From Rhodothermales bacterium (GTDB taxonomy: Bacteria > Bacteroidota > Rhodothermia > Rhodothermales > Bin80), in contig OY760427.1 of the NCBI GenBank assembly GCA_963663495.1, forward strand, positions 412,040-476,039: a stretch of 64,000 bases of DNA, written 5' to 3'. The first letter of the stretch is position 1, and every line of letters starts with the position of its first letter. The position numbers were made by a program, and so were the translations under genes. Shown here one piece after another: positions 5,333-64,000 of this stretch. Below the pieces are notes generated by a model. It did not search any database, had not been told where the DNA came from, and worked only from the letters and a program-made list of their open reading frames with translations.

Positions 5333-5503
5333 GGGAATTATATGGCTGAGTACCCATCTGCTGAGGTTTTCGAATTAATTGCAGTTTTTTCGCGAAAAGC
5401 GGGAACTGATTATGAAAAACTGGCGCAAGCCATCCTGACCGCACCACCACAGCGCAATAATAACGGGTGCCAAAACGCGTGGGTACTCAGCTATATAATT
5501 CCC
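5333..5503. mobile_element. 171-bp MITE with near-perfect 24-bp terminal inverted repeats, inserted into the right arm of IS66 copy 1
   Basis: GGGAATTATATGGCTGAGTACCCA ... TGGGTACTCAGCTATATAATTCCC. Flanked by the direct repeat TAATTGAG (5325-5332 and 5504-5511). The uninterrupted site with a single TAATTGAG is seen in IS66 copy 2 (about 19545-19560, complement). Confidence 0.85.
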
Positions 5504-5555
5504 TAATTGAGAGAGTAAATACCCTCGGTTATAATGTACTTCACCGGACGGATAC

Positions 5556-19376: not shown

Positions 19377-19500
19377 CCCGCGTTTCTCACAAGCAGGTCG
19401 AGACGGCCTGAGAAGCATTCAATTGGACTTCAGCACGAGTGCGTTTGAGTCAGAATCTTGGTAGCGTGTAATTTTTTGCTCCTCCAGTACCAATTTCCGG

Positions 19501-26424: not shown

Positions 26425-27135
26425 TAGGTTAGTATTTTGCCTGAATTCGAGGAATCCAATAGTGTTCGGGATGTGAGCACTCAGGAGATTGTGTTAAGAC
26501 CCCGAGCTCAGACCTACAAATTGCATGAATAGTTGTGTCGCTCGGCGGGGGAGATGTTTCCGCGTGTGGAATTGTTCGAGCAGAAGACGCGGGGTACAGG
26601 TGTCTGATAGATTGGCATGAGGTATCTCGTAGGCACAAGAGTCCTGTAAGTGCAGTGAGGCATGACTAATAGGCGGATGGGAGATCGATCCTATCCGAGA
26701 TGTGCTGGGGCGAACGAATATAATGTGTTCATTTGCGGTAGTTGGATTGGAAGCTAAGAACGGCGAGGAGGAGAGTCGTGGCTGGGAGAGGCAACTCGAT
26801 TCGCTACTGAGTATCAGAAGGCTTGTGGTCACGCCATCAACGGGGAAGGAGGGTTTGTCAACATAATTGGCCCATATTCAACCAACAAGACGATCACTTG
26901 GCCCTTATTCTTGGGGAAGAATGCCTGTCGCGGGATGCAGACTGGGTCTGAGTTTCAATTTTGTCAGCTAAGCCGGCCATTGGCATTTGATTCCCAGACA
27001 ATCACCATATGACGCTACTGAGTTTGCTATCCCAACTAGGTCTGACCACACTTTTCCGGGACCATAGCCCAAACACGGGTCGTCTATGGTCAGATTTTCG
27101 ATTTCAAGGCGTTGAGTCACAGCGGCGGTGCCACC

Positions 27136-34583: not shown

Positions 34584-35387
34584 GTCCAAATAGCATTGGG
34601 TCAAACGCGCTGGCATCGTCTATCGTGCTAGTATGCAGGCCTGTCAGGAAAGCAAGGCCGCAGACTACACGGAAAAAATTTGTTCAGGAATTACAAGAGG
34701 AGGTGCGCACTGCTATAAAGGTGCTTACCAGCGCTAATACTGCTCCCGTCGATGTGGCGCAAGCAGCGATCGGACCGGGCATGGCGGTATTTACGCGCTA
34801 CGAGCGAATCATCGACGCACGAGGGAATAGATTAAGCGTGTCGGACGCTCTTTCCCTCACCAACAAGGTGCTCGATGACATCACTTCAGAAGAGGAGGGC
34901 GATCTGGATACAGACAGTCGCTGGTCCTTGAGCTGGTTCAAGCAGCATGGATTTGCAGAGGGAACGTATGGTGATGCTGAGCAGCTATCCAAAGCCAAGA
35001 ATACCAGCGTGTCGGGATTGGTCGAGGCGGGCGTGCTTATCTCGGGAGGTGGCGCGGTGCGGCTGCTCAAGCCCGAGGAACTTCCAGAAGATTGGGATCC
35101 TGAACAGGATATGCGGCTCACCGCATGGGAAACCGTGCATCATCTGATTCGAGCACTTGACACGGGAGGCGAAATGGAAGCCGCGAACATTATTGCTCGA
35201 CTAGGAGCGGGAGCGGAAAGCGCGAGAGACTTGTGTTATCGATTGTATGTGCTATGTGAGCGGTCGAAGCGGATGGCCGAGGGCTTTGCCTACAACCGCC
35301 TCGTACAGAGCTGGCCGGAGATTACCCGGCTTGCCAAGAATATCCCCCATGAGCAGGGGACGCTAGATCTAGACTAAACTGTATTCC

Positions 35388-38300
35388 ATGGCTGCAACAA
35401 ATCACGAGCGCGTCGGACAAGCGCTCCACCTACTGAAACAGGGGCTTGCCCCCTTCGTCGATCGCGAAATCAAAGAAGCAGTATCGTCAGGTCGAGTGGA
35501 TACCGCATTATCATTAGGAAGCAGCGAGTGGCCGAGTGAGCCCATTGCGGAGTGGGATGCCGCTGCTCTACTCAAGCTGATGGTGCGGGTATGGGAAGAG
35601 GTGTTCCGTATACCACTTGGGTACGCCGAAAGGAATCTTGTGAGCGAACTGCGAACCACCCGCAATAAGTGGGCCCACCAGGAGCGCTTTTCGAGCGACG
35701 ATACCTACCGCGCACTTGATTCAACGCACCGACTTCTGCTTGCAGTCTCGGCACCTGAATCTGGAGCGGTGGATCAGATGAAGAAGGAACTGCTTCGAAT
35801 TCAATACAGCCAACAGGTACGCAATGATCTGCGAAAGCAGCGCGGATCCAATATTGAGCGCACGGGCTCCCACGAATTGCCTGCGTGGCGCGATGTTGCC
35901 GAGCCGCACGAGGATGTGACAAGCGGCGATTTTCAGCAGGCTGAGTTTGCGGCTGATCTGTGGCAGGTGCATGTGGGAGAAGGACAAATAGAATACCAGG
36001 ATCCGGCGGAGTTTTTCAGGCGCACCTTCCTGACAGACAGCCTCAAAGCCCTCCTGTCGGGAGCTATCCGAAGGCTATCTGGATCCGGTGGAGACCCGGT
36101 TGTCCAATTGCAGACAAACTTTGGTGGAGGCAAGACACATTCTATGCTCGCCCTTTACCACCTGGTGTCAGGCGTAAATACGGCAGCGTTGGAGGGATTG
36201 GACGATCTGGTGGTAGAGGTGGGTAGGCCTGTGCCTGCGTCCGTACGGCGTGTGGTATTGGTGGGCAATAAGATTTCTCCAGGCAATCCATCGGTGAAGG
36301 AGGACGGCACGCAGGTACGCACCTTGTGGGGTGAGCTGGCATGGCAGCTTGGGGGAAAGGAGGCATTTGAGCAAGTTGCGGAAGACGACCGCCATGCGAC
36401 CAATCCGGGGGATGTCCTACGTCAACTCTTTAACCGTTACGCCCCGTGCCTTGTGTTGATCGACGAATGGGTGGCCTACGCGCGCCAGCTTCTGGAACGA
36501 AGTAATCTACCCGGTGGAAATTTCGACACACAGTTTACTTTCGCGCAGGCACTGACCGAGGCGGCCAAGGGTGCGAAAGAGTGTCTCCTGGTGATAAGCC
36601 TGCCAGCTTCGGATACGGCCGGCACGGCGCACACGCATGCGGAGGATATTGAAGTCGGGGGTGTGCGTGGCCGCGATGCATTAATACGACTACAGAACGT
36701 GACGGGCAGGGTTGATTCTTCCTGGCAGCCCGCGAGCGCAGACGAGGGCTTTGAGATCGTTCGCAGGCGCCTGTTCGCACCCTTGCGCGAGGAGGCCCAG
36801 TCTCGCAAACGTGATACCGTTGCGCGAACCTTTGTTGAATACTATAGGGCAGCAAAAGGAGCCTTCCCTTCGGAATGTGCGGAGCGCGACTACGAACGCC
36901 GGCTCACGTCTGCCTATCCTTTGCATCCGGAGATCTTTGACCGCCTTTACAGCGATTGGTCCACTCTCCCGCGCTTCCAGCGTACCCGCGGTGTACTGCG
37001 CCTAATGGCGGCAGTAATCCATGCACTCTGGGAGGAGGGGGACAGGAACCCGCTCATAATGCCCTGCCACATTCCCATGAGCCGGCAGGATGTAAAGTCG
37101 GAGTTGACAAGGTACTTGCCAGAAGGCTGGTCACCGGTCATAGATGCGGATATTGACGGGCCGGGATCCACGCCCACCCAAGTGGAAAAAGCAGAAAGTC
37201 GGATGGGCCGTTATAGCGCCGCTCGGCGCGTTTCAAGGACGATCTATCTGGGGTCCGCTCCGAGACAGGGATCGAGTCATCCTGGCGTTAACGAGCAGCG
37301 AATCAGGCTAGGTGCGGCCGTGCCGGGTGAACCCAGTGGGGTGTTTGATGACGCGCTCCGCAGGCTGGCTTCGCAGTCTACCTACCTCTATCAGGAGGAT
37401 GTCCGCTATTGGTACAATACACGACCAACGGTCGCGCGTCTCGCCAAGGATCGGGCACAGTCCATGCATAACAATCCGCATCGCGTGATGGACGAGTTGC
37501 AGCGACGATTGAATGAGGACGTAAAGTCACGCGGTGATTTTAGCAGGGTACATGTTCTGCCAACGGGGTCGTTCGAAATCCCAGACGAGATGGGCGCGCG
37601 CCTCGTGATTCTTGGTGCAGACCATCTATATACTCGCGGACCAGGCAATGCGGCCGAGCAGGCGGCAACCGAGTACGTGAGGAGTCGAGGAAACATCGCT
37701 AGGGTATACCATAATACCTTGGTATTCCTGGCAGCCGACAGTGGACGATGGCAAGACCTGGATGAAGCGATATGCCTGCAATTGGCTTGGCAGTCCATCC
37801 TTGATGAAAAAGACGAACTCAATCTTGATCCGCAGCAGGTAAAGCAAGCGCAATCTCGCTGCGAAAAGGCAGGTGAAACCGTAAAGTCCCAAATATCGGC
37901 AGCGTTCCAGTGGCTATTGGTGCCGGCCAAGATCCACGCAGACGGCTCGTTGGATTATGAGGCCCATCGAATGACCGGGTCAGGGTCGTTGGCGGAGCGT
38001 GCGGCAACCAAGTTGAAAGGAGAGGAGCTTCTAGTGCCCATCCTGGCACCCAGCCGGCTACGGATGGAGCTCGACGACATGCCCCTTTGGAAGGATCACG
38101 TTGCCTTGTCCGAGCTGGCAAGCGACTTTGCGCAATTCCTTTACCTTCCGCGCCTCACTTCGACTAACGTCTTGGTGGAAGCCATAAAGCGAGGTCTCGT
38201 TGGGCAAATCAACTGGATAGAAGAGTCCTTTGCATATGCCGACGAATTCGACGAGCGCACGGGGAAATACACGGGTTTGAAGGTGGCAACCGATCTCCCG

Positions 38301-38690
38301 TTGGATCCCGCGTTCCTCACAGGGCTATTGGTGCAGCCCGATGTAGCGCAACGCCATTTTGCGGCCGATAAACCCGAGATAATTACCGAAAAGAGAAGCC
38401 TCCCCGAAGGGGAAAAAGTTGAGACAGAACCTGTCAAAGATCCGCATCCTTTCAAACCCAAGAGGTTCTTCGGAAGTGCATCAACGGATTCTCCACGGAT
38501 AGGCACCTGGGCGGCGAGGATTGGAGACGAAGTGATGGGCCACCTTGCAGGCATTGAAGGAGCAAAATGTACCGTGACGCTGGAGATAACGGTTGACGCC
38601 CCTGAGGGAATTTCGGATCGGGTTCGGAACACTGTACGGGAGAATGCAACCGTGCTGGGATTTAAGACAATTGTGTTTGAGGATGACTAG
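35388..38690 (+). CDS. DUF499-type P-loop ATPase with N-terminal Swt1-like HEPN motif
   Basis: TTRNKWAHQERF (R-x4-H), Walker A NFGGGKTHSM, Walker B LVLIDEWV. 1100 aa. Confidence 0.8.
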   Translation: MAATNHERVGQALHLLKQGLAPFVDREIKEAVSSGRVDTALSLGSSEWPSEPIAEWDAAALLKLMVRVWEEVFRIPLGYAERNLVSELRTTRNKWAHQERFSSDDTYRALDSTHRLLLAVSAPESGAVDQMKKELLRIQYSQQVRNDLRKQRGSNIERTGSHELPAWRDVAEPHEDVTSGDFQQAEFAADLWQVHVGEGQIEYQDPAEFFRRTFLTDSLKALLSGAIRRLSGSGGDPVVQLQTNFGGGKTHSMLALYHLVSGVNTAALEGLDDLVVEVGRPVPASVRRVVLVGNKISPGNPSVKEDGTQVRTLWGELAWQLGGKEAFEQVAEDDRHATNPGDVLRQLFNRYAPCLVLIDEWVAYARQLLERSNLPGGNFDTQFTFAQALTEAAKGAKECLLVISLPASDTAGTAHTHAEDIEVGGVRGRDALIRLQNVTGRVDSSWQPASADEGFEIVRRRLFAPLREEAQSRKRDTVARTFVEYYRAAKGAFPSECAERDYERRLTSAYPLHPEIFDRLYSDWSTLPRFQRTRGVLRLMAAVIHALWEEGDRNPLIMPCHIPMSRQDVKSELTRYLPEGWSPVIDADIDGPGSTPTQVEKAESRMGRYSAARRVSRTIYLGSAPRQGSSHPGVNEQRIRLGAAVPGEPSGVFDDALRRLASQSTYLYQEDVRYWYNTRPTVARLAKDRAQSMHNNPHRVMDELQRRLNEDVKSRGDFSRVHVLPTGSFEIPDEMGARLVILGADHLYTRGPGNAAEQAATEYVRSRGNIARVYHNTLVFLAADSGRWQDLDEAICLQLAWQSILDEKDELNLDPQQVKQAQSRCEKAGETVKSQISAAFQWLLVPAKIHADGSLDYEAHRMTGSGSLAERAATKLKGEELLVPILAPSRLRMELDDMPLWKDHVALSELASDFAQFLYLPRLTSTNVLVEAIKRGLVGQINWIEESFAYADEFDERTGKYTGLKVATDLPLDPAFLTGLLVQPDVAQRHFAADKPEIITEKRSLPEGEKVETEPVKDPHPFKPKRFFGSASTDSPRIGTWAARIGDEVMGHLAGIEGAKCTVTLEITVDAPEGISDRVRNTVRENATVLGFKTIVFEDD

Positions 38691-40410: not shown

Positions 40411-41520
40411 ATGAGTCCACGAGATATACTTGGGGCAAACGGCAAAGGTAATCCTACATCGCGAGTCAGGGTATTCGACTTCTTTTCTGGTTGCGGCGGG
40501 GCTAGTCGTGGGTTCAAGGAAGCTGGAATGGATGTGGTGTTTGCCCTAGACTGGGACACGAACGCCAAGCGGACCTTTGAGCAAAATTTTCCGCAGACCA
40601 AGTTTGTGGCCAAGGACATCCGAAAGGTGAACGAAGACACAGTCCGCAGGCTTGTTGACCAACTGCGACCCCACCCCGTCCTGTTCTCTGGATGTGCTCC
40701 CTGCCAGCCGTTTACTCGGCAAAATACTATTCGTCCTGCGCCAGATCAAGACGAACGGGTGCCGCTGCTCCTTGAATTTCTCCGCTTCATACAGACATGC
40801 GAACCGGACATCGTGTTCGTAGAAAACGTTCCCGGGATTCAGAATGTGTGCCCTAACTCGGAGCCGATCAGTGATTTTCTTCGGGGACTGAGCGACGCGG
40901 GATACGCGAATCCGGCCTACGATTCTGTATCCTTAAAACGGTACGGGGTGCCCCAGGGCCGCAAGAGATTCCTGTTACTCGCGAGCCGGCATAGCCGACT
41001 GGATCTCCCTTGCGAGACGCACGGCCCTGGAACCGATAATCCCGACTACTCCACCGTGCGTGAGTGGATCGGTGACTTTCCAAGGCTGGCCGCTGGTGAA
41101 ACGGATCCCAACATCGCTGACCACCGCGCAGCCGGCCTATCCTCGCTTAACCTGAAACGCATTCGCGCGACACCCGAAGGCGGTGGCAACCGGGATTGGC
41201 CGGAGTGCCTTCAGCTCGCGTGCCACCAAGGTGCAACGGGGTACAGCGATGTGTACGGTCGCATGTCGTGGGACAGGCCGGCTTCTGGACTGACCACGCG
41301 GTGTATCAGCTATTCAAACGGCCGCTTCGGTCATCCCGAGCAAGATCGTGCGATCAGCGTCCGGGAAGCCGCTTGTCTTCAGACATTCCCGATGGAATTT
41401 CGTTTTTCTGGTGCCTTAACCTCAATGGCTCGGCAAATTGGTAATGCCGTGCCCGTGAGGTTGGCTACCATCGTTGGCCGCCATGTGACCAGGCACTTGG
41501 CAGAGGTGGGCCTCAGCTGA
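40411..41520 (+). CDS. dcm: DNA (cytosine-5)-methyltransferase
   Basis: Motif I FDFFSGCGGASRGF, motif IV GCAPCQPFT, motif VI FVENVPG, motif VIII QGRKRFLL, motif X IGNAVPV. ATG at 40411. Confidence 0.9.
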   Translation: MSPRDILGANGKGNPTSRVRVFDFFSGCGGASRGFKEAGMDVVFALDWDTNAKRTFEQNFPQTKFVAKDIRKVNEDTVRRLVDQLRPHPVLFSGCAPCQPFTRQNTIRPAPDQDERVPLLLEFLRFIQTCEPDIVFVENVPGIQNVCPNSEPISDFLRGLSDAGYANPAYDSVSLKRYGVPQGRKRFLLLASRHSRLDLPCETHGPGTDNPDYSTVREWIGDFPRLAAGETDPNIADHRAAGLSSLNLKRIRATPEGGGNRDWPECLQLACHQGATGYSDVYGRMSWDRPASGLTTRCISYSNGRFGHPEQDRAISVREAACLQTFPMEFRFSGALTSMARQIGNAVPVRLATIVGRHVTRHLAEVGLS

Positions 41521-44489
41521 TGGCATTTGAAGCAACCTTCAAAGCACGAGCCAGAACGCTGGACATGTTGGGGAGGCAGCAGATCGCTGGCATTCCAACA
41601 GCGATTAGCGAGCTGTTCAAAAACGCGCACGATGCGTATGCCTCTAGGGTGGTGGTGGACTACTACCGGCAGGACGGTCTGTTTGTCCTACGGGATGACG
41701 GTAACGGCATGGAAACCAGCGAATTCGTTGACCGATGGCTTACCCTAGCGACCGAGGCCAGCGTTATGCGCAACGGAGGAAAAGGTCGGCTCGCGGAGTC
41801 CGCGAAAAATGCACGCCCTGTCCTTGGAGAAAAAGGCATTGGTCGCCTCGCTATCGCTACAATCGCCCCCCAAGTGCTGGTACTTACTCGCGCGCGGCGT
41901 AATGGCGCGTTATCCGACCTCACCGCTGCCTTCGTGAACTGGCGTGTATTTGAGTGCCCTGAGCTAGATCTTCAGGACATCAGGATTCCGATTCGGACAT
42001 TTCGAGGAGGAACACTTCCCGACAAAACGGATGTTGCCAGCATGGTTGGTTATTTCCACCGTCGGAACGAGCGACTTCGCCGCCGCGTGGACAGCAAGAA
42101 ATGGGACCAATTGGAAGCCGAGCTTTCACAATTTAATGTTGATCCTTCGGAAATGGCGAAGGATATGGGTAAGCCGACGCTTCTTGGCGGCGGTCACGGT
42201 ACCCACTTCTACCTTCTACCTGCATCCACTAATCTAAAACACGACATAGCGGGGGATCGCGGCTCTGATGTGGCGCCACCGCTCCAGAGAGCACTCTTGG
42301 GGTTCACCTGTCCGTCATTTGCTGGTGGGGGCGAACCAGTCATCCACACCTCTTTTTGGGATCACCGGGTCGATGGCACCCGTGAAGATCTAATTGGGGA
42401 GAGGAGTTTCTTCACCTCCTACGAGTACGAGAATGCCGATCATCAAATCTGGGGGCGATTCGATGAGTACGGCCAGTTCAAGGGGAGTGTCACCGTGTAC
42501 GGCGATACTGTGGAGGATCATGTGATCCACTGGAGCGGCGGGAAGGGGAAGAAGACGGATTGCGGTCCGTTCCACGTCAGGTTCGCCGCAGTGGAAGGGG
42601 TGGCGCGGTATTCGACCTTGCCACCAGAGGAGCATGGCCGTATGCTTGATAAGACGCGAAAGATCGGTGGTTTGTACATCTATCGGGACGGCGTACGCAT
42701 TCAGCCGTACGGAAACACCGACTACGATTGGCTCGAAATCGAACTCCGACGGACAAAAAGTGCTTCGTACTACTATTTCTCCTACCGGCAGATGTTTGGT
42801 GTCGTTGAGGTAGACTCAACCCACAATGGGCGGCTTCGCGAGAAGGCTGGTCGCGAAGGATTTCGCAAGAACAAGGCGTTCCGTGACTTACGGGGAATAC
42901 TGAAGAGCTTCCTCGTGCAGATCGCCGCAGATTTCTTCCGTCAGGAGGGCGTACATGGCGATCGGTTCGTGAGTCGGAAGCGGGAGATAGAGGAAAACGA
43001 ACGGCATCTACGCGCACGCTCCAAGCAAGTCACCGCTAAGCGCACCAAGTTCAAGAAGGAATTGACCGCATTCTTCAACCGGATGGAGACTGAGAAGCCG
43101 CTTGAAAGGATCTTGGAATTGGGTGAGAAAATTGAGGCGCGCGTTAGGGAGGCAGGCCTTGATACGGATCGTCTGAGGGCGGCCAGACGGATCATCAAAA
43201 TTGAAAGTGAAGCACGAAAGGGACTCAAGGATCTGGAAGCCAGCTATCAGGTCTCCAAGCCCCGAATTGGTATGAGCCGAGCCTTGCAACGGGAGTGGGG
43301 CGATTATCAGGAGGCGTTCGCGAACCTCCGCGAGAGCAGTCACAACCTCCGTGACATGATTGAGAGCGTCGTGACACAGGAAGTGACCGACGCGGGAGTT
43401 AGCCTAAGTGCGCGAAAGCGCATAGAGACAGCTCTCAACGAGGAAGGACAATCTGCGCGGCGCGAGATCAGAAAACTTCGCAAGGATGTGGTGAAGGAGG
43501 CCGAGGATATCCTTGTCGGTGTACAAGCTATCGGGCGCCAGTGTGTTCGGGATGTTGAGTCGGCGATCCGGGCCACGATGGCCAATTTCGCTCGGCGTGA
43601 ATTTGAGAACATTGACGACCAGCAACTGATTGCGGTACGCTCGGACTTGGAGGCACCAATCCGCAAGGCTTTGGACAACGCTACTGGTAAGCTTAGCGCA
43701 CTGCGCTTCCAGCTGGCAGCGGTCGTCCTTAGGAATGACTCCTCCCTGGTAGATCAGCTTGAAGCGGTTGAACAGAGCAATCTCACGTTACGGGAGCAGG
43801 CTTCCGTCGACCTCCACCTCGTACAGGTCGGCATGGCAATTGAGATTATTAGCCACGAATTCGGCGCAGCCATCCGTTCAGTCCGGTCGGGGCTTCGAAG
43901 TCTCAAGGCCTGGGCTGACCTGAACCAAGACCTGAAGTCGCTTTATCAAGGGATCCGCGGCAGCTTTGACCACCTTGATGGTTACCTCACCCTCTTCACA
44001 CCGCTTCAAAGGAGGCTTTACCGCAAAGCGGTGGACATCCATGGATGGGAGATCTACGAGTTTCTGACTAACCTATTCGGCCAGCGACTGGCCAGACATA
44101 ATGTCCACATGACTCGAACCGATGCTTTTGCCGCTGCTATGGTAACTGGTTATCCGTCTTCGTTTTACCCTGTCTTTGTCAATCTCGTGGACAACGCGAT
44201 CTATTGGCTCGCCGGCAAGAACGAGCGCTTTGAACGGCGAATCCGGCTTGATGCATCTGGAAATACGTTCTGTATCTCGGATTCGGGTCCAGGAATCCAT
44301 GGCCGTGATCAAGACTACATCTTTGATATCGGGTTTACCCGGAAGCCGGGGGGACGTGGTATGGGATTACACATCTCAAGGGCAACATTACGCGAAGTAG
44401 GCTATGACCTGATCCACCAAGCGGATGCCCCGGGGCAGGGTGCAACATTTGTTATCATACCGATCAGGAAAAAGGGACGGGCGCATTGA
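41520..44489 (+). CDS. Fusion protein: N-terminal MORC/MutL/Hsp90-type GHKL ATPase module + C-terminal histidine-kinase core (H-box + HATPase_c)
   Basis: N-terminal ELFKNAHDAYA, LRDDGNGM, GEKGIGRLA. C-terminal H-box AIEIISHEFGAAIRS (His codon 43854-43856), N box VNLVDNAIYW, G1 SDSGPGI, F IFDIGFT, G2 GRGMGLH. The ATG overlaps the dcm stop (TGATG). Confidence 0.75.
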   Translation: MAFEATFKARARTLDMLGRQQIAGIPTAISELFKNAHDAYASRVVVDYYRQDGLFVLRDDGNGMETSEFVDRWLTLATEASVMRNGGKGRLAESAKNARPVLGEKGIGRLAIATIAPQVLVLTRARRNGALSDLTAAFVNWRVFECPELDLQDIRIPIRTFRGGTLPDKTDVASMVGYFHRRNERLRRRVDSKKWDQLEAELSQFNVDPSEMAKDMGKPTLLGGGHGTHFYLLPASTNLKHDIAGDRGSDVAPPLQRALLGFTCPSFAGGGEPVIHTSFWDHRVDGTREDLIGERSFFTSYEYENADHQIWGRFDEYGQFKGSVTVYGDTVEDHVIHWSGGKGKKTDCGPFHVRFAAVEGVARYSTLPPEEHGRMLDKTRKIGGLYIYRDGVRIQPYGNTDYDWLEIELRRTKSASYYYFSYRQMFGVVEVDSTHNGRLREKAGREGFRKNKAFRDLRGILKSFLVQIAADFFRQEGVHGDRFVSRKREIEENERHLRARSKQVTAKRTKFKKELTAFFNRMETEKPLERILELGEKIEARVREAGLDTDRLRAARRIIKIESEARKGLKDLEASYQVSKPRIGMSRALQREWGDYQEAFANLRESSHNLRDMIESVVTQEVTDAGVSLSARKRIETALNEEGQSARREIRKLRKDVVKEAEDILVGVQAIGRQCVRDVESAIRATMANFARREFENIDDQQLIAVRSDLEAPIRKALDNATGKLSALRFQLAAVVLRNDSSLVDQLEAVEQSNLTLREQASVDLHLVQVGMAIEIISHEFGAAIRSVRSGLRSLKAWADLNQDLKSLYQGIRGSFDHLDGYLTLFTPLQRRLYRKAVDIHGWEIYEFLTNLFGQRLARHNVHMTRTDAFAAAMVTGYPSSFYPVFVNLVDNAIYWLAGKNERFERRIRLDASGNTFCISDSGPGIHGRDQDYIFDIGFTRKPGGRGMGLHISRATLREVGYDLIHQADAPGQGATFVIIPIRKKGRAH

Positions 44490-46084
44490 TGTGCACTGAA
44501 GACTACGCAGAGCACTGTAGAGAGATTGCACGGCGTTTCCTCCTTACGGCGGTCGTAGTCGACGACGAACTCGCTGTTGTTGACGATGCTGTTGTCCACC
44601 GTAAACTCACGACGCCCGGACGGGGTGTGTCAATGCCGACAGCAATGGAGTCCGGTCCAACTCAGAACCGCTCGCTCAATGTTAACCTAATCACACGGTC
44701 CTTTGCTCGGCTCGGCATGATTTGTGGGCTGGTATCACCACTGAAAGGGGAGGATACCGAGGAGCTGCTTGCCAAAGCCGTCGCTCGTGCGGATATTGTG
44801 ATTTTGGACTGGATTTTGGACCGGACGACCGGCGCCAACGCGCTGCAGCTGTTGAAGCGGATTCTGACTGAAGACCAGCCTCGCCGACTTCGCCTGCTAG
44901 CGTTCTACACCGGCGAGCCCGATCATGACAAGATTCGCGTAAAGATCGTCGAGTGCGTTAACGGAATTGACGACCTGTACAAAGCGGGATGCCCCAGCGA
45001 TGGCAGCGACAAAGCCATCAGCTACCGTTCTTGCCGGATTGTAGTGTACGGGAAGCCCGGATCTGGTACCCGTGATTTGGAAAGCGAGGTTGACGAGGAG
45101 AAATTGGCCGACCGGCTAATCGCCGATTTCGCCAGTATGGTTGAGGGGCTTCTGCCCAGTTTGGTTCTTACCGCTCTGGGCGCAGTTCGGGAGAATGTGT
45201 ATCAATTGCTGGAGTGTTTCGGACCCGATCTTGACCCGGCATTTCTTGTGCATCGCGTATGCTTACCACAACCTGCGGATTCTGATCTACACATCGTAGA
45301 ACAGATCACAAGTGAATTGCATGGGATCATGGAAGACGCGGTCGGTAAATGGCGTCCGGCGGGAATCCGTGCGATTAAGCTATGGCTCGAGAAGCACTTC
45401 CCCGAAAATGAAGACATCGTGCTTGCACCGAGGAGTAAAGGTCAGGACGCTAAGCGGATATCTCGGGGCAAAGCCATTGATTTGCTTAAGAATGGCATTA
45501 AGGAGAGCTCAGGACCACTTAAAAAGAATGGCAGCGAATACGATCTTCTCTCTCATGGATTCACGGGGGGCGCAGATAACAGCCGGGAACTTGATCAACG
45601 TCTCGCCGCCGTTATGAGCTTTCGTCAGGTACCGCCTTCCGATCGGCGCCAGCTATCATTGGGCACGGTAATGGTCAAAGACGAAAATAAATCAGGAACC
45701 TTCCTCCTTTGTGTCACTCCGCAATGCGATAGCGTTCGATTGACCGGAACGACAAAATTTCTTTTCCTCCGACTCACAAACGCCAAAGCCAATACCTCGC
45801 GGCTTGTGGTGCCGGTCAGCGATACCGAACACCGGTGCATGACCATATCACTGAATCCATCGCAGTGGTGTCAGCTAAAATTCGCACGCGACCGTGAGGT
45901 GCGCTGCGTATTGGCGCAGCGGAATGATACCGATAATTCCTTCACGTTTAAGGATAAGAACGACATAGCATACCGCTGGGTAGGAGAGTTGAAGTTCGGA
46001 CAGGCCCAGGCAATCGCGATGTTAATTGCCCAAAGAATGTCTAGGATCCCTCTCAACCAGTCGGAGTGGCTCAGACGGTCATAG
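44489..46084 (+). CDS. Receiver (REC) domain protein with an about 340-aa uncharacterised C-terminal domain
   Basis: AVVVDDEL (acidic pair), ADIVILDWILD (Asp codon 44807-44809), LLAFYTGEP (Thr), VVYGKPG (Lys-Pro). The ATG overlaps the upstream stop (TGATG). Confidence 0.65.
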   Translation: MCTEDYAEHCREIARRFLLTAVVVDDELAVVDDAVVHRKLTTPGRGVSMPTAMESGPTQNRSLNVNLITRSFARLGMICGLVSPLKGEDTEELLAKAVARADIVILDWILDRTTGANALQLLKRILTEDQPRRLRLLAFYTGEPDHDKIRVKIVECVNGIDDLYKAGCPSDGSDKAISYRSCRIVVYGKPGSGTRDLESEVDEEKLADRLIADFASMVEGLLPSLVLTALGAVRENVYQLLECFGPDLDPAFLVHRVCLPQPADSDLHIVEQITSELHGIMEDAVGKWRPAGIRAIKLWLEKHFPENEDIVLAPRSKGQDAKRISRGKAIDLLKNGIKESSGPLKKNGSEYDLLSHGFTGGADNSRELDQRLAAVMSFRQVPPSDRRQLSLGTVMVKDENKSGTFLLCVTPQCDSVRLTGTTKFLFLRLTNAKANTSRLVVPVSDTEHRCMTISLNPSQWCQLKFARDREVRCVLAQRNDTDNSFTFKDKNDIAYRWVGELKFGQAQAIAMLIAQRMSRIPLNQSEWLRRS

Positions 46085-46172: not shown

Positions 46173-46449
46173 TCAAAGAAACCCAACTCTCCGCGCGGCG
46201 ATCGCTTCCAGATCGGACTTATCACATTCTTGGATCACAATCACTCGCCACCCGATTTGGTGGAAGGCTTCCCCATTCCGCAGGTCTTGGACGACATTGC
46301 CATTGAACTAGTTCTTGTAGAACTGAAGGTCATGTAGTGTTTCTCGTTGAATTCGGGACGTGGAGTAGCTTTCGCATCCTGTAACCTGCCGATGCTAGCG
46401 GCAATACGGTTGGCAAGATTAGGGGGCTAACTCTTGTTGGGTTTCCATA
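46173..46449 (-). pseudogene. vsr: Decayed very-short-patch repair endonuclease (vsr) remnant, frameshifted and split by the 46450-49798 insertion
   Basis: C-terminal frame NGNVVQDLRNGEAFHQIGWRVIVIQECDKSDLEAIAARRVGFL resembles the Vsr ...N.ERD......L...GWRVL.VWEC tail. An upstream frame gives ATPRPEFNEKH (compare PATRTEFWLEKI). Confidence 0.45.
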
Positions 46450-46910
46450 GGGAGTTATATGGCTGAGTGCCACGCGTTTTCGCAGGCGTTACTTTTTGTG
46501 CTTTGGTGGTGCAGACAGGATGGCTTTCGCCAGTTCTTCCAATGTGGTAGGGATGGATTGTTGGATATTGAGAATGTCGTTTGTCACGGGGCGGCCGGGG
46601 CGTTTCGTTTCCTGAATCTTGTTACCGGGCTTCGGGGATTTATCTATGCGCATGGCGTTATAAGCTATAGAGTAGCACTAATCCATTGGGGCAGAATACC
46701 GAAATGATTGCATGGCGGACATCTGCTTAGAGCATGTAGGAGGCTGCATATCCAGTTTTCACGACAGTCGATCAATTTCAGGACCGATTCCTTGGCTTAT
46801 ATCGGGATGCTCTTGACAATGCGGAAGTACTGGGCGGACCCCGGTACGGGCCACGAAGCGCACCGGACGAACCCATGAGACGCGGGCCATCAAGCACAGA
46901 CATGGAAAAG

Positions 46911-48088: not shown

Positions 48089-48341
48089 CTAGTGGGTCAT
48101 CAATCTATCACGGGATGGTGCCCATTTTCGGCATAATCGGTTCCCGCTTTACGCGACCACACTGCAATTATTTCAACAATTTAACGCGCGGGCACTCAAC
48201 TGTATAACTACCATAGGTATCACTCACAGTACGGGAGCTCGCCCATCCGGCTACGACAACACACCGTGTCAAGCGCCGTGGTGGCACAAGACCGTGTGAG
48301 CACACGAATTGTTTTGGAGGACTTACGTCAAGGTTACATTT

Positions 48342-48512
48342 GGGAGTTATATGGCTGAGTGCCACGCGTTTTCGCAGGAGTTACTTTTTGTACTTTGGTG
48401 GTGCAGACAGGATGGCTTTCGCCAGTTTCTCATAATCGGTTCCCGCTTTTCACGACAAACTGCAATTATTTCAAATAACTCAACACGTGGGTATTCATGC
48501 TATATAATTGCC
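48342..48512 (+). mobile_element. 171-bp MITE of the same family as 5333-5503, placed 8 bp upstream of the tnpB unit
   Basis: GGGAGTTATATGGCTGAGTGCCACGCG ... CACGTGGGTATTCATGCTATATAATTGCC. Its right half matches the IS1595 5' arm at 48130-48212. Confidence 0.8.
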
Positions 48513-48542
48513 ATATATCAGGGAGTTATATACCACAGTGCC

Positions 48543-49793
48543 ATGCCCGAAACGGTTAGTGCATACCGCAATATTACATACAGGCTGTTGCCCGGAAGTC
48601 GGAGTAACGCCAAGCACCTTGCTGGATTAGCGGGTGCGTGTAGGTTTGTGTGGAATGCCATCCTCGCAGAGCAGAGCGAGGCGTACAAGAAAGCGAAAGA
48701 GGCTGGAGAGAAGCCGCCCTCGGTAAGCTTCTTCTCGCTGGGGAAGCGGTTCACGGCGCTGCGCCGCACGGTCGAGTGGCTACCTGAATACTCCTTTGGT
48801 GTCGTTAGATACACATTGAAATATCAGGCGGATGCATGGAAGGCATTCTTCAAGGAGGGTAAGAGAAGACCGAGATTCCATTCTAGACGTGGTAGTACGC
48901 CTTCGTTCACGATCCTGGATAACGTAAGGGTTCGGGATGGCAAGCTGTATATCCCGAAAGTGGGATATATGGCACTCCGCAGGCGGGGAGGCAACCCGTA
49001 CCCTGATGGTATACCCGTCAAAGCCACGGTAAAGAAGAACGCCGGCAAAGGGTATGCTATCATCTGCTACAAGATGGAGGCACCTGTAATAGAGGATACC
49101 GGCGGTGCTGTAGGCATTGACCGTAATTGCGGGCAGGTCGCTATGGTCTCCACAGAGGGCGATACAAGCATTATCAGACAACCGGATACCAAGCGTCTTG
49201 ATGCCAAGTTGAAGCGGCATCAGCGAAGACTGGCGAGACAGAAGAAAGGCTCCAACCGTCGTAACAGGCGGAAGCATAGCATCGCCCGCATACAGCGCAA
49301 GCGTGCTAACGTCCTCAAGAATGCGAACCACCAGGTAAGTCGCAGTATTGCCAATTGCTCCTCAACGGTGATACTGGAGGACCTGAAGATCAAAGCGATG
49401 ACACGTTCAGCTAAGGGGACGATGGAGAGCTTTGGCACAAACGTCAGACTGAAGTCTGGCCTCAACCGTGGGATACTGCGAACAGGTTGGGGCCAGCTGG
49501 ATCAGATGCTGGGCTATAAGTGCCGCAAGGTGATAAAGGTTACCGCTGCCTATACGAGTCAGCGGTGTTCTGTGTGTGGGCACACAGAAGCGAGTACCCG
49601 TAAGACACGGAGCAAATTCACGTGTATGTCCTGTGGACATGCGGATCATGCAGACCTGAATGCGGCTGCAAACATACTGGCCTCCGGGATTGGGGCTTCT
49701 GCACGGCGAGGGGCGTTCGGGTTACTGACCCCTATGACCCGTGAAATTGATACTAGTGCCTCACTGTGTACAGTTGGTCACTCACGTATATAA
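48543..49793 (+). CDS. tnpB: TnpB (OrfB_IS605-type RNA-guided endonuclease family), 416 aa
   Basis: RuvC-like GIDRNCG, ILEDLKIK, HADLNAAANI. Zn finger CSVCGH...CMSCGH. ATG 48543: the track ORF start at 48309 reads through the MITE. Confidence 0.9.
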   Translation: MPETVSAYRNITYRLLPGSRSNAKHLAGLAGACRFVWNAILAEQSEAYKKAKEAGEKPPSVSFFSLGKRFTALRRTVEWLPEYSFGVVRYTLKYQADAWKAFFKEGKRRPRFHSRRGSTPSFTILDNVRVRDGKLYIPKVGYMALRRRGGNPYPDGIPVKATVKKNAGKGYAIICYKMEAPVIEDTGGAVGIDRNCGQVAMVSTEGDTSIIRQPDTKRLDAKLKRHQRRLARQKKGSNRRNRRKHSIARIQRKRANVLKNANHQVSRSIANCSSTVILEDLKIKAMTRSAKGTMESFGTNVRLKSGLNRGILRTGWGQLDQMLGYKCRKVIKVTAAYTSQRCSVCGHTEASTRKTRSKFTCMSCGHADHADLNAAANILASGIGASARRGAFGLLTPMTREIDTSASLCTVGHSRI

Positions 49794-49931
49794 TTCCCTT
49801 TCCATAACAGCGCGCACGCAAAGCAGGGTCGAACATGCTGCCCCAAAACATCCACACAAAGTTCCAGAAAATGCAGCGCAGCCTTCCCACATGATGGAGG
49901 ACGAATCGTCTCCCACCTCGGGTCCGGTCTG

Positions 49932-60379: not shown

Positions 60380-61836
60380 GGGAATTATTTACGTGAGTGA
60401 CCAACTGTACACAGTGAGGCACTAGTATCAATTTCACGGGTCATAGGGGTCGGTAACCCGAACGCCCCTCGCCGTGCAGCAGCCCCAATCCCGGAGGCCA
60501 GTATGTTTGCAGCCGCATTCAGGTCTGCATGATCCGCATGTCCACAGGACATACACGTGAATTTGCTTCGTGTCTTACGATTACTCGCTTCTGTGTGCCC
60601 ACACACAGAACACCGCTGGCTGGTATAGGCAGCGGTAACCTTTATCACCTTGCGGCACTTATAGCTCAGCATCTGATCCAGCTGGCCCCAACCTGTTCGC
60701 AGTATCCCACGGTTGAGGCCAGACTTCTGTCTGACGTTTGTGCCAAAGCTCTCCATCGTCCCCTTAGCTGAACGTGTCATCGCTTTGATCTTCAGGTCCT
60801 CCAGTATCACCGTTGAGGAGCAATGGGCAATACTGCGACTTGCCTGATGGTTCGCATTCTTGAGGATGTCAGCACGCTTGCGCTGTATGCGGGCGATTCT
60901 ATGCTTCCGCCTGTTACGACGGTTGGAGCCTTTCTTCTGTCTCGCCAGTCTTCGCTGATGCCGCTTCAACGTGGCATCAAGACGCTTGGTATCCGGTTGT
61001 CTGATAATGCTTGTATCGCCCTCTGTGGAGACCATAGCGACCTGCCCGCAATTACGGTAAATGCCTACAGCACCACCGGTATCCTCTATTACAGGTGCCT
61101 CCATCTTGTAGCAGATGACAGCATACCCTTTGCCGGCGTTCTTCTTTACCGTGGTTTTGACGGGTATACCATCAGGGTACGGGTTGCCTCCCCGCCTGCG
61201 GAGCGCCATATATCCCACTTTCGGGATATACAGCTTGCCATCCCGAACCCTTACGTTATCCGGGATCGTGAAGGAAGGCGTACTACCACGTCTGGAATGG
61301 AATCTCGGTCTTCTCTTACCCTCCTTGAAGAATGCCTTGCATGCATCCGCTTGATATTTCAATGTGTATCTAACGACACCAAAGGAGTATTCAGGTAGCC
61401 ACTCGACCGTACGGCGCAGTGCCGTGAACCGCTTTCCCAGCGAGAAGAAGCTTACCGAGGGCGGCTTCTCTCCAGCCTCTTTCGCTTTCTTATAGGCCTC
61501 GCTCTGCTCTGCGAGGATGGCATTCCACACAAACCTACACGCACCCGCTAATCCTGCGAGGTGCTTGGCGTTACTCCGACTTCCGGGCAACAGCCTGTAT
61601 GTGATATTGCGGTATGCACTAACCGTTTCGGGCATGGCACTGTGGTATATAACTCCCTAATAGATGGAAATTATACAGCATGAATACCCATGTGTTGAGT
61701 TATTTGAAATAATTGCAGTTTTTTCGTGAAAAGCGGGAACCGATTATGAAAAACTGGCGAAAGCCATCCTGTCTGCACCACCTAAGCACAAAAAGTAACT
61801 CCTGCGAAAACGCGTGCACTCAGCCATATAACTCCC
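60380..61836 (-). mobile_element. MITE + tnpB composite element, copy 2, with 8-bp target-site duplication
   Basis: Ends GGGAATTATTTACGTGAGTG (60380) and the complement of GGGAGTTATATGGCTGAGTG (61836). TTATTATT at 60372-60379 and 61837-61844. Internal layout: tnpB unit 60380-61657, 8-bp spacer, MITE 61666-61836. Confidence 0.8.
60385..61635 (-). CDS. tnpB: TnpB, 416 aa, copy 2
   Basis: About 96% identical to 48543-49793 with the same catalytic and zinc-finger motifs. Confidence 0.9.
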   Translation of the reverse strand: MPETVSAYRNITYRLLPGSRSNAKHLAGLAGACRFVWNAILAEQSEAYKKAKEAGEKPPSVSFFSLGKRFTALRRTVEWLPEYSFGVVRYTLKYQADACKAFFKEGKRRPRFHSRRGSTPSFTIPDNVRVRDGKLYIPKVGYMALRRRGGNPYPDGIPVKTTVKKNAGKGYAVICYKMEAPVIEDTGGAVGIYRNCGQVAMVSTEGDTSIIRQPDTKRLDATLKRHQRRLARQKKGSNRRNRRKHRIARIQRKRADILKNANHQASRSIAHCSSTVILEDLKIKAMTRSAKGTMESFGTNVRQKSGLNRGILRTGWGQLDQMLSYKCRKVIKVTAAYTSQRCSVCGHTEASNRKTRSKFTCMSCGHADHADLNAAANILASGIGAAARRGAFGLPTPMTREIDTSASLCTVGHSRK

Positions 61837-61918: not shown

Positions 61919-62217
61919 GCGGACGTGGCGAAATCGGTAGACGCAGCAGACTTTAATTGGAGTGCCCGCGCGGAAACGCGCGGTGTAGAACCGCTCAACT
62001 TCGGGGAAAGCTCTGGCACTTCTTGCCGTGCCAATCCCGAGCCAAGCCCGGCCTTGCCGGGAAGGTGTAGAGACTAGACGGGCGGCACCTACGGCCTGAT
62101 GGCTACGGTGAAGGGATAGTCCAGACCACGAACGCCAGATGGCGGCGGCGAAAGCCGAAGTGGTACGAAAATCTGCTTCTCGAAATGGGAGTGCGGGTTC
62201 GAGTCCCGCCGTCCGCA
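61919..62217 (+). tRNA. tRNA-Leu (anticodon UAA) interrupted by a 214-nt intron in the anticodon loop
   Basis: 5' exon GCGGACGTGGCGAAATCGGTAGACGCAGCAGACTT (61919-61953). 3' exon AAAATCTGCTTCTCGAAATGGGAGTGCGGGTTCGAGTCCCGCCGTCCGCA (62168-62217). Joined they give an 85-nt class II tRNA with loop CUUAAAA. Confidence 0.8.
61954..62167 (+). ncRNA. Group I intron (tRNA-Leu UAA / IC3-like)
   Basis: Inserted between U34 and A35. Ends in G (..GGTACG). The internal guide GGAGT can pair with exon ACUUU. Core blocks CCAATCCCGAGCCAAGCC, GGAAGGTGTAGAGACTAGACGGGCGGCACC and GGGATAGTCCAG closely resemble the cyanobacterial tRNA-Leu intron core as I remember it. Confidence 0.75.
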
Positions 62218-62399
62218 CAGGGTGGACCGGCGCGTAAAAAGATGCGCGTTCGGTCATGTGGCGCGAGATGGGTTGGCACCTTCGCAGGCTTGGAACGGAC
62301 ACGGAGAGCGTCATACGCAAGACATCATAAACAATCGCCTGAAAGATTCAGACCTCCGTGACCATAGAAGAATCTGCGAGTAGGTCGCCATAATCGTTG

Positions 62400-62439: not shown

Positions 62440-62640
62440 GTTATTGAACACGGCGGATCAGAGGTTGGGTAAACTCAAATCAGCGTCACCGATGGGTAGC
62501 AATAGCCGTCCGGGAAACCGAACCCTGATTATGCAAGCTTCGTTGTGCGCCCCACCTTCCGAAGCTCCAAATAACTTTGGTAAATTGTGTGCAGCAGTAG
62601 TATTTTGGGTCCACTCCTAGCCGGTTTTGGAAACCATGGC
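62440..62640 (+). mobile_element. Degenerate remnant of the 3' arm of the IS256 element
   Basis: Collinear with 11810-12010 (…GGCGGATCAGA(C/G)GTTGGGTAAACTCA(G/A)ATCA…CACCGATGGGTAGCAAT…CCTTCCGAAGCTCCAAA…). Confidence 0.55.
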
Positions 62641-63075: not shown

Positions 63076-63160
63076 TGGGCAGTAACGGGCTAGGCAAATG
63101 TCCCAGTCGGTCAGTCTTGTCCGGCCTACAAGGATTCGGAGGTGGGGTGGCTGGAGGAAG

Positions 63161-64000
63161 GTGTCCGTCCGGTGAAGTACATTATAACCGAGGGCATTTA
63201 CTCTCTCAATTAGAGTAAGTTAGACCGCGATCCGAAGGCTAAATAGGCTGGCGTCGGTTGGGCGTGCAGGAGTCAAGTACCTAACAGCGTGTTCGCAGAC
63301 CAGCACACGGATCTATCGGATAACCCGGGGCACCTGTTTAGGGGCTCCTATGCCGCTTTCTTGACGGTAGCTTGCTGCAAGTCCCGCCTAGCTTTCCAAT
63401 GATGGGGCAAGAGCTCAGCCATGCGTTCGGCAGGATATGTCGGAAGACTGCGTAGTACATCGGCAAGCCATTCAATCGGGTTTACCGATTGCAGCTTGCA
63501 TGTGGCAAAAAGAGCGTACAGTACTGCGGACCGCTGCGCTGCCGCATGCGATCCCGCAAACAGATGGTTTTTCCGACCAAGCGCAATCGCCCGCATCTGG
63601 TTTCGACCAGATTGTTATCGATCTCAACCTTGCCGTCTTCCAGGTAACAAGCCAGCTTCTCCCACCTGTTGAGCATGTACCCCACGGCTTCATCCCATCC
63701 CGCACTCGGCCGGTGCTCACTACTCTCCTCAAGCCATGGCTTCAACTTCTCCAGTACCGGCCGTGCCTCCTCCTGTCGTACCTCTACACGCCGAGCCGGA
63801 CCAGCTCCCTCCTTACGCAACCCACGCTCTATCGCATACAACTGCCGGATTTCCTCCATTACATGGCGCACCTTCTTGGGCTCCTTTTTCCTGCAGTCAT
63901 AAAACTTGCGACGCGCATGCGCCATACATCCAAACAGCGTTATCCCGCCCCGCGTACCAAACGCATCGTACACCACATACCCGTCGGTTTGCATCGCCCC
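63161..64000 (-). mobile_element. IS66-family insertion sequence, copy 3 (runs off the window)
   Basis: Right IR GTGTCCGTCCGGTGAAGTAC at 63161, collinear with 19501 onward. Confidence 0.85.
63348..63994 (-). pseudogene. IS66 transposase with a 1-nt deletion frameshift near 63600
   Basis: ORFs 63482-63994 and 63348-63596 are consecutive parts of the copy 2 protein in different frames. CTGGTCGAAACCAG here versus CTGGTCGAGAACCAG in copies 1 and 2. Confidence 0.85.

Follow-up and report, generated by a model that had tools for sequence, protein, structure and literature searches.

A tRNA-Leu(UAA) gene split by a compact group I intron in the chromosome of a Rhodothermales bacterium, and its probable origin by whole-gene transfer

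Introduction

Group I introns within the anticodon loop of tRNA-Leu(UAA) are best known from cyanobacteria and plastids, where the introns of Anabaena/Nostoc and Synechococcus and the plant trnL intron are the usual examples. An insert at this same site was noticed in a 64,000-nucleotide stretch of DNA from a Rhodothermales bacterium (assembly GCA_963663495.1, contig OY760427.1), which is referred to below as the window. An earlier note, made from the sequence alone, read it as an intron nearly identical in its core to that of cyanobacteria and plastids, lying in surroundings that did not look cyanobacterial. The questions raised by this locus are whether the insert is a genuine group I intron in a working tRNA gene, which introns and which tRNA genes are its closest relatives, and how it came to be present in this genome.

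Anatomy and detection of the split gene

When the sequences on the two sides of the insert are joined, they form a canonical 85-nt class II tRNA-Leu(UAA) with a normal cloverleaf and the anticodon loop CUUAAAA, as typed by ARAGORN on the spliced 85-mer. The 214-nt insert lies between U34 and A35 and has G as its last base (Table 1). Both of these points had been claimed in the earlier note and they are confirmed here, the position of the insert to the base. In its intron mode, ARAGORN independently called a split tRNA at 61919-62218, i(35,214). The CCA end is not encoded after exon 2; the trailer reads CAG, the same as in the host tRNA-Ala. A search of the + strand beside the gene, using models that do not include Bacteroidota-type promoters, found neither a sigma-70 promoter nor an intrinsic terminator.

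The gene is easily overlooked. Run without introns, as is its default, ARAGORN reported no tRNA at 61919-62217, and an Rfam scan at the gathering threshold gave no match at this locus. At a permissive threshold, in a search of 551 nt, the Rfam model Intron_gpI (RF00028) matched positions 61944-62144 (model positions 1-253) with 47.1 bits and an E value of 6.2e-11. This match is significant, though it lies 2.9 bits below the curated gathering score of 50, which is an annotation cut-off, and the silence of the default Rfam scan is due to this shortfall. Because default ARAGORN and gathering-threshold Rfam scans both miss them, split genes of this kind are left unannotated, and under the usual annotation the host would seem to be without tRNA-Leu(UAA), a real and probably essential tRNA gene having gone unseen.

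Table 1. Coordinates of the split gene, the elements of its intron and the neighbouring sequences (window positions, except for the plasmid homologue)
Feature	Position	Strand	Remarks
tRNA-Leu(UAA) exon 1	61919-61953	+	35 nt; acceptor 5' strand, D arm, anticodon stem 5' strand, C32 U33 U34
Group I intron	61954-62167	+	214 nt, IC3-like, without ORF; Rfam RF00028
tRNA-Leu(UAA) exon 2	62168-62217	+	50 nt; 5' part with A35 A36 and anticodon stem 3' strand, then long variable arm, T arm, acceptor 3' strand, discriminator A
P1	61950-61963	+	exon/intron ACUUU (61950-61954) with internal guide GGAGU (61959-61963)
P2	61966-72/61977-83	+	7 bp, GAAA tetraloop L2 (61973-61976); compensatory change in 7/7 pairs
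P3	61991-96/62080-85	+	99.8% paired, 3 covarying pairs
P4	62001-06/62035-40	+	100% paired
P5	62010-11/62030-31	+	100% paired
P6	62041-43/62064-66	+	100% paired
P6a	62047-51/62057-61	+	4 covarying pairs
P7 (pseudoknot helix)	62070-62122	+	G62070 and 62072-62076 with 62117-62122, bulged A62071; 100% paired in 72 sequences
P8/P8a	62086-62110	+	inside P7; P8 99.7% paired, 3 covarying pairs
P9	62125-28/62161-64	+	within 62125-62164
P9a	62133-36/62141-44	+	within 62125-62164
P9b	62146-49/62154-57	+	GAAA tetraloop L9b (62150-62153)
Omega G	62167	+	terminal guanosine directly before the 3' splice site
TnpB element	60380-61836		96.8% identity to a second copy at 48342-49798
Repeated/IS sequence	from about 62392		IS66 copy at 63160-64000
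Split tRNA-Leu(UAA) of pCTX-M3	NC_004464.2 61823-62118		aacC2/aac(3)-IId-tmrB module

Fold of the intron and its support by covariation

The fold of the intron was examined in an alignment of 72 sequences, in which the window intron, together with eight exon nucleotides on each side, was aligned with 71 homologous tRNA-Leu(UAA) introns. Its members are the window gene, a plasmid copy that is described below, and 70 of 78 recovered split tRNA-Leu(UAA) genes. The canonical group I helices were drawn from the window sequence and then mapped onto this alignment, which was not itself fitted to the structure. In the window copy, all 60 of the 60 pairs in P1-P9 are standard, against a median of 2.5 broken pairs in the family. 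Over the alignment as a whole 95.7% of the cells are paired, a measure that is favoured by taking the structure from one aligned sequence, compared with 29-43% after a shift of the 3' partners by 1-3 columns. Compensatory change on both sides, a count that is not favoured in this manner, is seen in 36 of the 60 pairs, and none of 500 shuffles reached any of the observed measures of pairing or covariation.

The guide GGAGU pairs with the exon sequence ACUUU with a U.G pair at the splice site, exactly as the earlier note had proposed. This wobble, formed by U34 (61953) and G61960, marks the 5' splice site and is UG in 72 of 72 homologues, and the fifth pair of P1 covaries (AU in 48 sequences, GU in 14, UG in 7, CG in 2 and GC in 1). 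At the other junction every one of the 72 aligned genes has the terminal G and, after it, AAAAT. The span of P3 (61991-62085) encloses J3/4, P4, P5, P6, P6a and the 5' strand of P7, the helix that by established group I structure would be expected to bind guanosine. In P9, P9a and P9b taken together, 11 of the 12 pairs show compensatory change. The internal motif of P8, CCUACG/UACGG, is a variant of the CCUAAG/UAUGG of the family. The architecture is compact, with P5abc lacking and GAAA tetraloops on P2 and P9; on the model of the Azoarcus and Anabaena literature, these loops may make tertiary contacts with receptor-like motifs in P8/P5. A homing endonuclease ORF is absent from the intron, whose 214 nt correspond to at most 71 codons, nearly all of them within conserved helices. 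With a covariance-model match, the U.G pair in P1, an omega G and a covariation-supported P3-P8 core that includes the P3/P7 pseudoknot, the insert is a compact IC3-type group I intron of the sort typical of bacterial tRNA genes.

Three known systems invite comparison. The bacterial tRNA-Leu(UAA) introns designated 'Leu.3Ug' have the same tRNA, splice site and IC3-type core, are of comparable size and without ORF, and show no structural difference from the window intron. The Azoarcus tRNA-Ile(CAU) intron, a structural model system that is also of the IC3 type, resembles the window intron in being compact (about 205 nt) and in carrying GAAA on P2 and P9, and its P3-P8 core sequence is the same, including GAAGGUGUAGAGACUAGACGG; it differs in residing in another tRNA and at another anticodon-loop position, after 36 ('Ile2.5Ug'). 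The cyanobacterial/plastid intron shares with that of the window the insertion site, the U.G pair in P1, the overall IC3 fold and the core blocks AAUCCYGAGCCAAG and GGUGYAGAGACU, but the peripheral sequences in P2, P5, P6, P8 and P9 of a Synechococcus-type seed differ, and the exons of the window are alphaproteobacterial in type.

Distribution of the intron among bacteria

The earlier note regarded tRNA group I introns as rare in bacteria other than cyanobacteria, a view that is outdated. According to the accessible part of a recent survey, 5,292 tRNA group I introns are present in 80,413 bacterial genomes, and 'Leu.3Ug' is one of four classical settings for which counts are tabulated by phylum; the order Rhodothermales is not mentioned in that part of its text (Williams, 2020, bioRxiv 10.1101/2020.01.27.920355). 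A scan of species-representative genomes with a 21-mer from P7 of the intron (GAAGGTGTAGAGACTAGACGG) yielded at least 120 loci. The matches listed come from Alpha-, Beta- and Gammaproteobacteria, Acidobacteriota, Chloroflexota, Binatia, Saccharibacteria, Bacteroidia and one Rhodothermaceae MAG; none has a cyanobacterial host, but the 21-mer has T at a position that is C in the cyanobacterial seed, which biases it against cyanobacteria. By splice-site typing, at least 78 of the matches listed are tRNA-Leu(UAA) genes split exactly at CUU/...G/AAAA. These are from Alpha-, Beta- and Gammaproteobacteria, Acidobacteriota, Binatia and Bacteroidia, and cultured strains of Bradyrhizobium, Sphingomonas, Burkholderia, Paraburkholderia, Paracoccus, Reyranella, Carnimonas and Microbulbifer are among the hosts, the remaining matches listed being in Arg, Met/fMet, Thr and other tRNA settings.

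The sequence blocks from which a cyanobacterial/plastid kinship had been suspected are common to all of these introns and to the Azoarcus tRNA-Ile intron. All three of the blocks quoted in the earlier note are indeed present in the window, and they recur in IC3 introns from many tRNA settings in bacteria instead of being specific for cyanobacteria and plastids. The feature is a further case of a known and widespread kind of intron, in a new host order, and the intron itself will be no surprise to a specialist. The tRNA-Leu(UAA) intron is not a hallmark of cyanobacteria and plastids; it is frequent in Proteobacteria and Acidobacteriota and it occurs in Bacteroidota/Rhodothermota.

Genomic setting and affinities of the exons and the intron

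The nearest named homologues of the AcnA and BNR/sortilin proteins of the window are from Rhodothermales, Rhodothermaceae, Rhodocaloribacter and 'Bacteroidota' MAGs (70-83% identity), and the gene order tRNA-Ala(CGC)/AcnA/HydB/HydA/RecO/BNR is conserved in several relatives. Judged by these homologues, the host belongs to the Rhodothermales and not to the cyanobacteria, and the non-cyanobacterial character attributed to the surroundings is borne out. Its genome is rich in IS elements. In the closest available Rhodothermales relative, a genome referred to here as L129, the BNR protein is 83% identical, the order AcnA-HydB-HydA-RecO-BNR is the same, and a split tRNA-Leu(UAA) with a 214-nt intron follows directly after BNR with no TnpB or IS sequence. 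As the same locus holds the gene in this closest available relative, it is a resident chromosomal gene of a Rhodothermales sublineage. Among other relatives, L123 and L131 (BNR 73% identical) lack a tRNA at this locus, the gene directly after BNR in L123 being that for gamma-glutamyltranspeptidase, and in L130 (BNR 79% identical) there is no tRNA within 747 nt.

Table 2. Identity of reference introns to the window intron
Reference	Identity
L129, syntenic copy (whole gene compared)	91%
L083 (Jannaschia)	88%
L090	84%
L071 (Oceaniglobus)	84%
L017	82%
pCTX-M3 plasmid copy	80%
Williams seed Ncf2	75%
Azoarcus tRNA-Ile	63%
Cyanobacterial Leu seed (the one cyanobacterial reference)	60%

Next to the syntenic copy, the introns closest to that of the window (Table 2) include those of L083, L090 and L071, which are Rhodobacterales genes. 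The exons point the same way. Exons of the split genes largely follow taxonomy, with Acidobacteriota, Burkholderia and Bacteroidia each having their own type, and those of the window fall into a small subgroup (GCGGACGTGGCGAAATCGGTAGACGCAGCAGACTT / AAAATCTGCTTC...). Compared with split genes of other lineages, they differ at 3-10 positions from L072, L090, L017, L071, L083, L060 and the plasmid copy, versus 28 differences from one Bacteroidia gene and 19-23 from most other lineages. The distribution of the subgroup is patchy, Phenylobacterium and Paracoccaceae each showing the lineage-typical type and the subgroup type in different species. In a neighbour-joining distance tree, which is based upon about 240 columns and has moderate support at some nodes (57-79%), the window gene nests within the subgroup; its grouping with L129 has a bootstrap score of 79%, and a clade of these two with L083 (Jannaschia) and L071 (Oceaniglobus) is supported 95% of the time. 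The single cyanobacterial reference roots outside this clade in the trees.

The alphaproteobacterial loci themselves appear ordinary. L083 is flanked by glcDEF and a PLP enzyme, which are genuine Jannaschia housekeeping genes, its GlcD being 100% identical to that of 'Jannaschia sp.' and about 91% to those of named Jannaschia species. Neither synteny nor similarity of flanking DNA was seen between the window and the alphaproteobacterial loci. A Pfam examination of the flanking ORFs at the alphaproteobacterial loci of the subgroup found no mobile-element context, only ordinary metabolic or regulatory genes or nothing, and the case for mobility of the subgroup is for this reason limited to the plasmid copy and to the patchiness of its occurrence. 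When metagenomes were scanned with an exon/P1 pattern specific to the subgroup, at least 107 full-length genes of 72-88% identity were recovered, and none of the environmental copies listed has Rhodothermales-like flanks or synteny. The alphaproteobacterial relatives encode CCA, whereas the window and L129 copies and the host tRNA-Ala do not.

History of the gene

Since the exons and the intron both belong to this patchy subgroup, known otherwise from Alphaproteobacteria and enterobacterial resistance plasmids, the most likely history, to the extent that exon and intron similarity and a distance tree can indicate it, would be a single ancient acquisition of the complete split gene, of alphaproteobacterial type and probably from Alphaproteobacteria, by an ancestor common to the two Rhodothermales genomes. 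Following its acquisition the gene would have descended vertically and its 3' end would have been adapted, with IS insertions taking place later in the genome of the window. This explanation in its entirety, viz. a resident tRNA-Leu(UAA) gene with an IC3 intron, an old whole-gene transfer and subsequent TnpB/IS66 insertions, is in our judgement probably correct. The horizontal transfer considered in the earlier note survives in this form, as an old event involving a whole gene of alphaproteobacterial type; what finds no support is a cyanobacterial source or a link with the neighbouring IS elements.

The alternative that fares best, although we consider it improbable, is that the gene is native to the Rhodothermales and vertically inherited, with the intron present since deep bacterial ancestry and the alphaproteobacterial likeness reflecting conservation or transfer in the reverse direction. 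The syntenic chromosomal locus in two diverged Rhodothermales genomes and the lack of an encoded CCA, as in the host tRNA-Ala, agree with this possibility, as does the observation that in other phyla the types of exon and intron for the most part track taxonomy, a sign of predominantly vertical inheritance; it is also helped by a comparison made without a Rhodothermales tRNA-Leu(UAA) baseline. Against it stand the small number of exon differences from the patchy alphaproteobacterial subgroup in relation to the much larger numbers from the Bacteroidia gene and most others, the strongly supported nesting of the Rhodothermales pair with the Jannaschia and Oceaniglobus genes, the lack of a tRNA at this locus in the more distant relatives L123 and L131, and the lack of Rhodothermales synteny in any of the environmental subgroup copies listed. 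In the Rhodothermales pair the exons and the intron agree in having a foreign (alphaproteobacterial) affinity, and the case is a clean one. This concordance makes a modest addition to a long-standing question, namely whether such introns spread by their own mobility or by transfer of whole tRNA genes.

Integrity and expected function

The window copy departs from the consensus of positions conserved at 90% or more at one site, the family median being two departures. This site is C61999, the third position of J3/4; L129 and each of the 71 other aligned introns have A there. The change is specific to the window copy and it could weaken folding or catalysis. A comparison with the L129 gene shows 27 differences, of which two are exonic, in the variable arm, and 25 intronic. 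In the helices these comprise two fully compensatory pair changes (in P6a and P9a) and three wobble transitions that preserve pairing, and one change breaks a loop-closing pair. Exon 1 is identical in the window, L129, L083 and the plasmid copy.

The intron looks genuine and intact, and from its class it would be expected to self-splice; we infer that the gene is a working tRNA gene. The steps of group I splicing are established chemistry. In this instance the precursor would fold into P1-P9, and free guanosine, bound in P7, would attack the phosphate after U34 that is marked by the U.G wobble of P1. G62167 would then occupy the same guanosine site and the freed 3'-OH of U34 would attack the 3' splice site, joining the exons into a mature 85-nt tRNA-Leu(UAA) which, after addition of CCA by enzyme, would read UUA and UUG codons. 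Splicing would be obligatory if the host had no other tRNA of this kind. That the gene is a decaying relic, a pseudogene whose intron no longer splices while another copy supplies the tRNA-Leu(UAA) function, is a reading to which the unique A-to-C change at the otherwise invariant J3/4 position and the abundance of IS elements in the genome lend something, but we give it little credence in view of the unbroken pairs, where the family typically has two or three broken, the single departure from the consensus, the perfect cloverleaf formed by the exons, and the compensatory changes relative to L129 by which the helices have been kept.

Neighbouring mobile elements

Some 600 bp of unique DNA, with a TnpB element on one side and repeated/IS sequence on the other, contain the tRNA-Leu gene. 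A TnpB element and IS66 debris thus do flank it, as the earlier note had remarked, although their relevance to its presence does not hold up, the same locus in L129 having the gene without TnpB. The ends of the TnpB element, which are set by its two copies in the window, leave the tRNA gene 83 nt outside, and the gene was therefore not found to be cargo of this IS200/IS605-type element. A recent insertion along with IS elements, indicated by a break in synteny, was suggested by the arrangement in L123 together with TnpB and IS66, and this reading was overturned by L129.

That the gene came in recently by horizontal transfer, carried by the adjacent TnpB or IS66 elements, is hardly credible. 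The confinement of the gene to a short unique segment between the TnpB element and further IS sequence and the travelling of a related gene with IS elements on plasmids might be cited in its favour, but the ends of the two TnpB copies exclude the tRNA, the corresponding place in L129 contains the gene and neither TnpB nor IS, and the 9% divergence between the two Rhodothermales copies implies a long residence. The TnpB and IS66 elements would more simply have inserted around the gene at a later time. Equally implausible is a transfer from, or specific common descent with, the cyanobacterial/plastid tRNA-Leu(UAA) intron, which the earlier note had implied from the shared insertion site and core blocks, because the identity of the window intron to the one cyanobacterial sequence compared is 60%, which does not exceed that to Azoarcus tRNA-Ile (63%), versus 84-88% to the Rhodobacterales genes (84-91% if the Rhodothermales copy is included), and because the exons too are of alphaproteobacterial type.

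Homologues on resistance plasmids and in phages

About 1,300 plasmid records contain a match to the 299-nt gene over its full length, with about 83% identity. The plasmids are mostly conjugative and come from E. coli, Klebsiella, Salmonella, Acinetobacter and others. In pCTX-M3 and in an IncC plasmid of Vibrio cholerae this copy adjoins tmrB and aac(3)-IId and is located between IS26 and ISCfr1. It is an intact tRNA-Leu(UAA) gene with a 213-nt intron, an encoded CCA and one of the 60 pairs broken. At 99% identity or more it is present in 636 of 5,426 complete E. coli genomes (12%), with no annotation under it. A published description of the module, in its accessible part, gives the order 'aacC2-tmrB-orf192-orf228-orf1182-ISCfr1' and mentions neither a tRNA nor an intron, and a literature search found no publication combining tmrB with a group I intron or tRNA-Leu.

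The plasmid copy resembles the window gene in its identical exon 1 and in an intron that is 80% identical, and both fall into the same subgroup in the exon and intron trees; it differs in encoding CCA and in residing on conjugative plasmids between IS26 and ISCfr1. We put forward, tentatively and with the expectation that it may well prove wrong, the idea that genes of this subgroup move as whole units, having entered a Rhodothermales ancestor once, passed repeatedly among Alphaproteobacteria, and reached the aac(3)-IId/tmrB module, where the plasmid copy may be expressed and selected as an extra decoder of UUA/UUG. If this were true, the split tRNA-Leu of these plasmids would be a selected decoder instead of a passive hitch-hiker. 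In practical terms the plasmid homologue offers a lead, as a tRNA gene containing a ribozyme that rides with a clinically common aminoglycoside-resistance module. Lastly, in a collection of phage genomes, Gordonia phage Daredevil and one uncultured phage gave partial matches (79%) to the 3' half of the intron.

Plasmid-borne copies of the split tRNA-Leu(UAA) gene

Outside the window, intact tRNA-Leu(UAA) genes that encode CCA and contain a group I intron of 213 nt were found on plasmids, including pCTX-M3 and a plasmid of V. cholerae (coordinates for all features are in the table below), where they adjoin tmrB and aac(3)-IId. About 1,300 plasmids in PLSDB carry the split gene beside tmrB/aac(3)-IId, and the plasmid-type gene (at least 99% identical) is also present in 636 of 5,426 complete E. 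coli genomes. Exon 1 of the plasmid copy is identical to that of the window gene, whereas the two introns are 80% identical. RefSeq has no annotation at the plasmid gene, and no mention of it was found in searchable descriptions of the tmrB/aac(3)-IId module.

Occurrence of the intron core in other tRNA genes and in phages

Among the matches listed for the intron-core 21-mer in species genomes, at least 120 loci (L001–L120), the same core splits, in addition to tRNA-Leu(UAA), tRNA-Arg(CCU), tRNA-Arg(UCU), tRNA-Met/fMet(CAU), tRNA-Thr and others; one of the split tRNA-Arg(UCU) genes belongs to a Rhodothermaceae MAG (locus L022). The intron mode of ARAGORN often mis-types split tRNA genes (e.g., Leu(UAA) is called Ser or Phe), because the splice site is misplaced by 1–2 nt. 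Partial matches of about 79% over 46–50% of the query, spanning the P7–P9 half of the intron, were observed in two phage records, neither of which has any annotation at that position. Presumably both belong to same-class group I introns that lie within phage genes or tRNAs.

A divergent base in J3/4

In the alignment of 72 tRNA-Leu(UAA) introns, the window intron deviates from the family consensus at a single position, 61999 in the joining segment J3/4, where it has C and all of the 71 other introns have A. The copy at the syntenic locus (L129) of the closest relative, outside that set of 72, has A as well. This change could be a defect in folding or catalysis, a neutral substitution, or a sequencing error.

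Mobile and defence-like elements in the window

The window contains two TnpB-only elements (96.8% mutual identity), each adjoining a tRNA gene, and the element is absent from the orthologous loci of relatives. In a more distant relative (locus L123), a DarT-Macro (DarTG toxin-antitoxin) pair is present at 7456–9194, a short way upstream of where the conserved tRNA-Ala/AcnA block lies, in a place that is occupied in the window by a TnpB element. An IS66-family element is represented in the window at least three times, as copies or fragments, and a further repeat (82%) links 62443–62633, just downstream of tRNA-Leu, to 11806–11997. The unique DNA around the tRNA-Leu gene is limited to only about 600 bp.

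Location of features in the window and in other records
Feature	Location	Strand	Remarks
Plasmid split tRNA-Leu(UAA), pCTX-M3	L127 5001–5296 (NC_004464.2 61823–62118)
Plasmid split tRNA-Leu(UAA), V. cholerae	L128 5001–5296 (CP012668)
Partial intron match, Gordonia phage Daredevil	NC_048021.1 41862–42009
Partial intron match, phage record	LR756511.1 409177–409322
TnpB-only element (IS605-type OrfB/Cas12f-like)	60380–61836	−	83 nt upstream of tRNA-Leu
TnpB-only element (IS605-type OrfB/Cas12f-like)	48342–49798	+	133 nt from tRNA-Ala(CGC)
End-like short TnpB-element fragment	46449–46539		95.6%
End-like short TnpB-element fragment	5324–5508		82%
End-like short TnpB-element fragment	48132–48214		79%
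IS66-family copy or fragment	63160–64000		~95% identity among copies
IS66-family copy or fragment	19500–20341		~95%
IS66-family copy or fragment	4537–5332		~95%
SNF2/ResIII helicase with NOV_C domain	27112–30642		candidate defence island
DUF1156 protein	30624–32228		candidate defence island
DDE transposase	32973–34328		interrupts candidate island
HEPN_Swt1 + DUF499 protein	35388–38690		candidate defence island
Large ORF, N-terminal DruA (Druantia) Pfam + Tn5/IS4-type DDE transposase domains	1338–3242	−
Large ORF, same domains	12280–14589	−
HATPase_c_3 + HEF_HK + HATPase_c protein	within 41520–46084		989 aa
Response_reg_2 protein	within 41520–46084		532 aa

The region 27112–38690 is likely a defence island. 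In the two ORFs combining DruA and DDE domains, the DruA part may be genuinely fused to the transposase, or the Pfam family may just span the N-terminus of a transposase. Beside the mobile/defence region, the HATPase_c/HEF_HK and Response_reg_2 proteins are encoded by neighbouring genes, which form an uncommon two-component-like pair.
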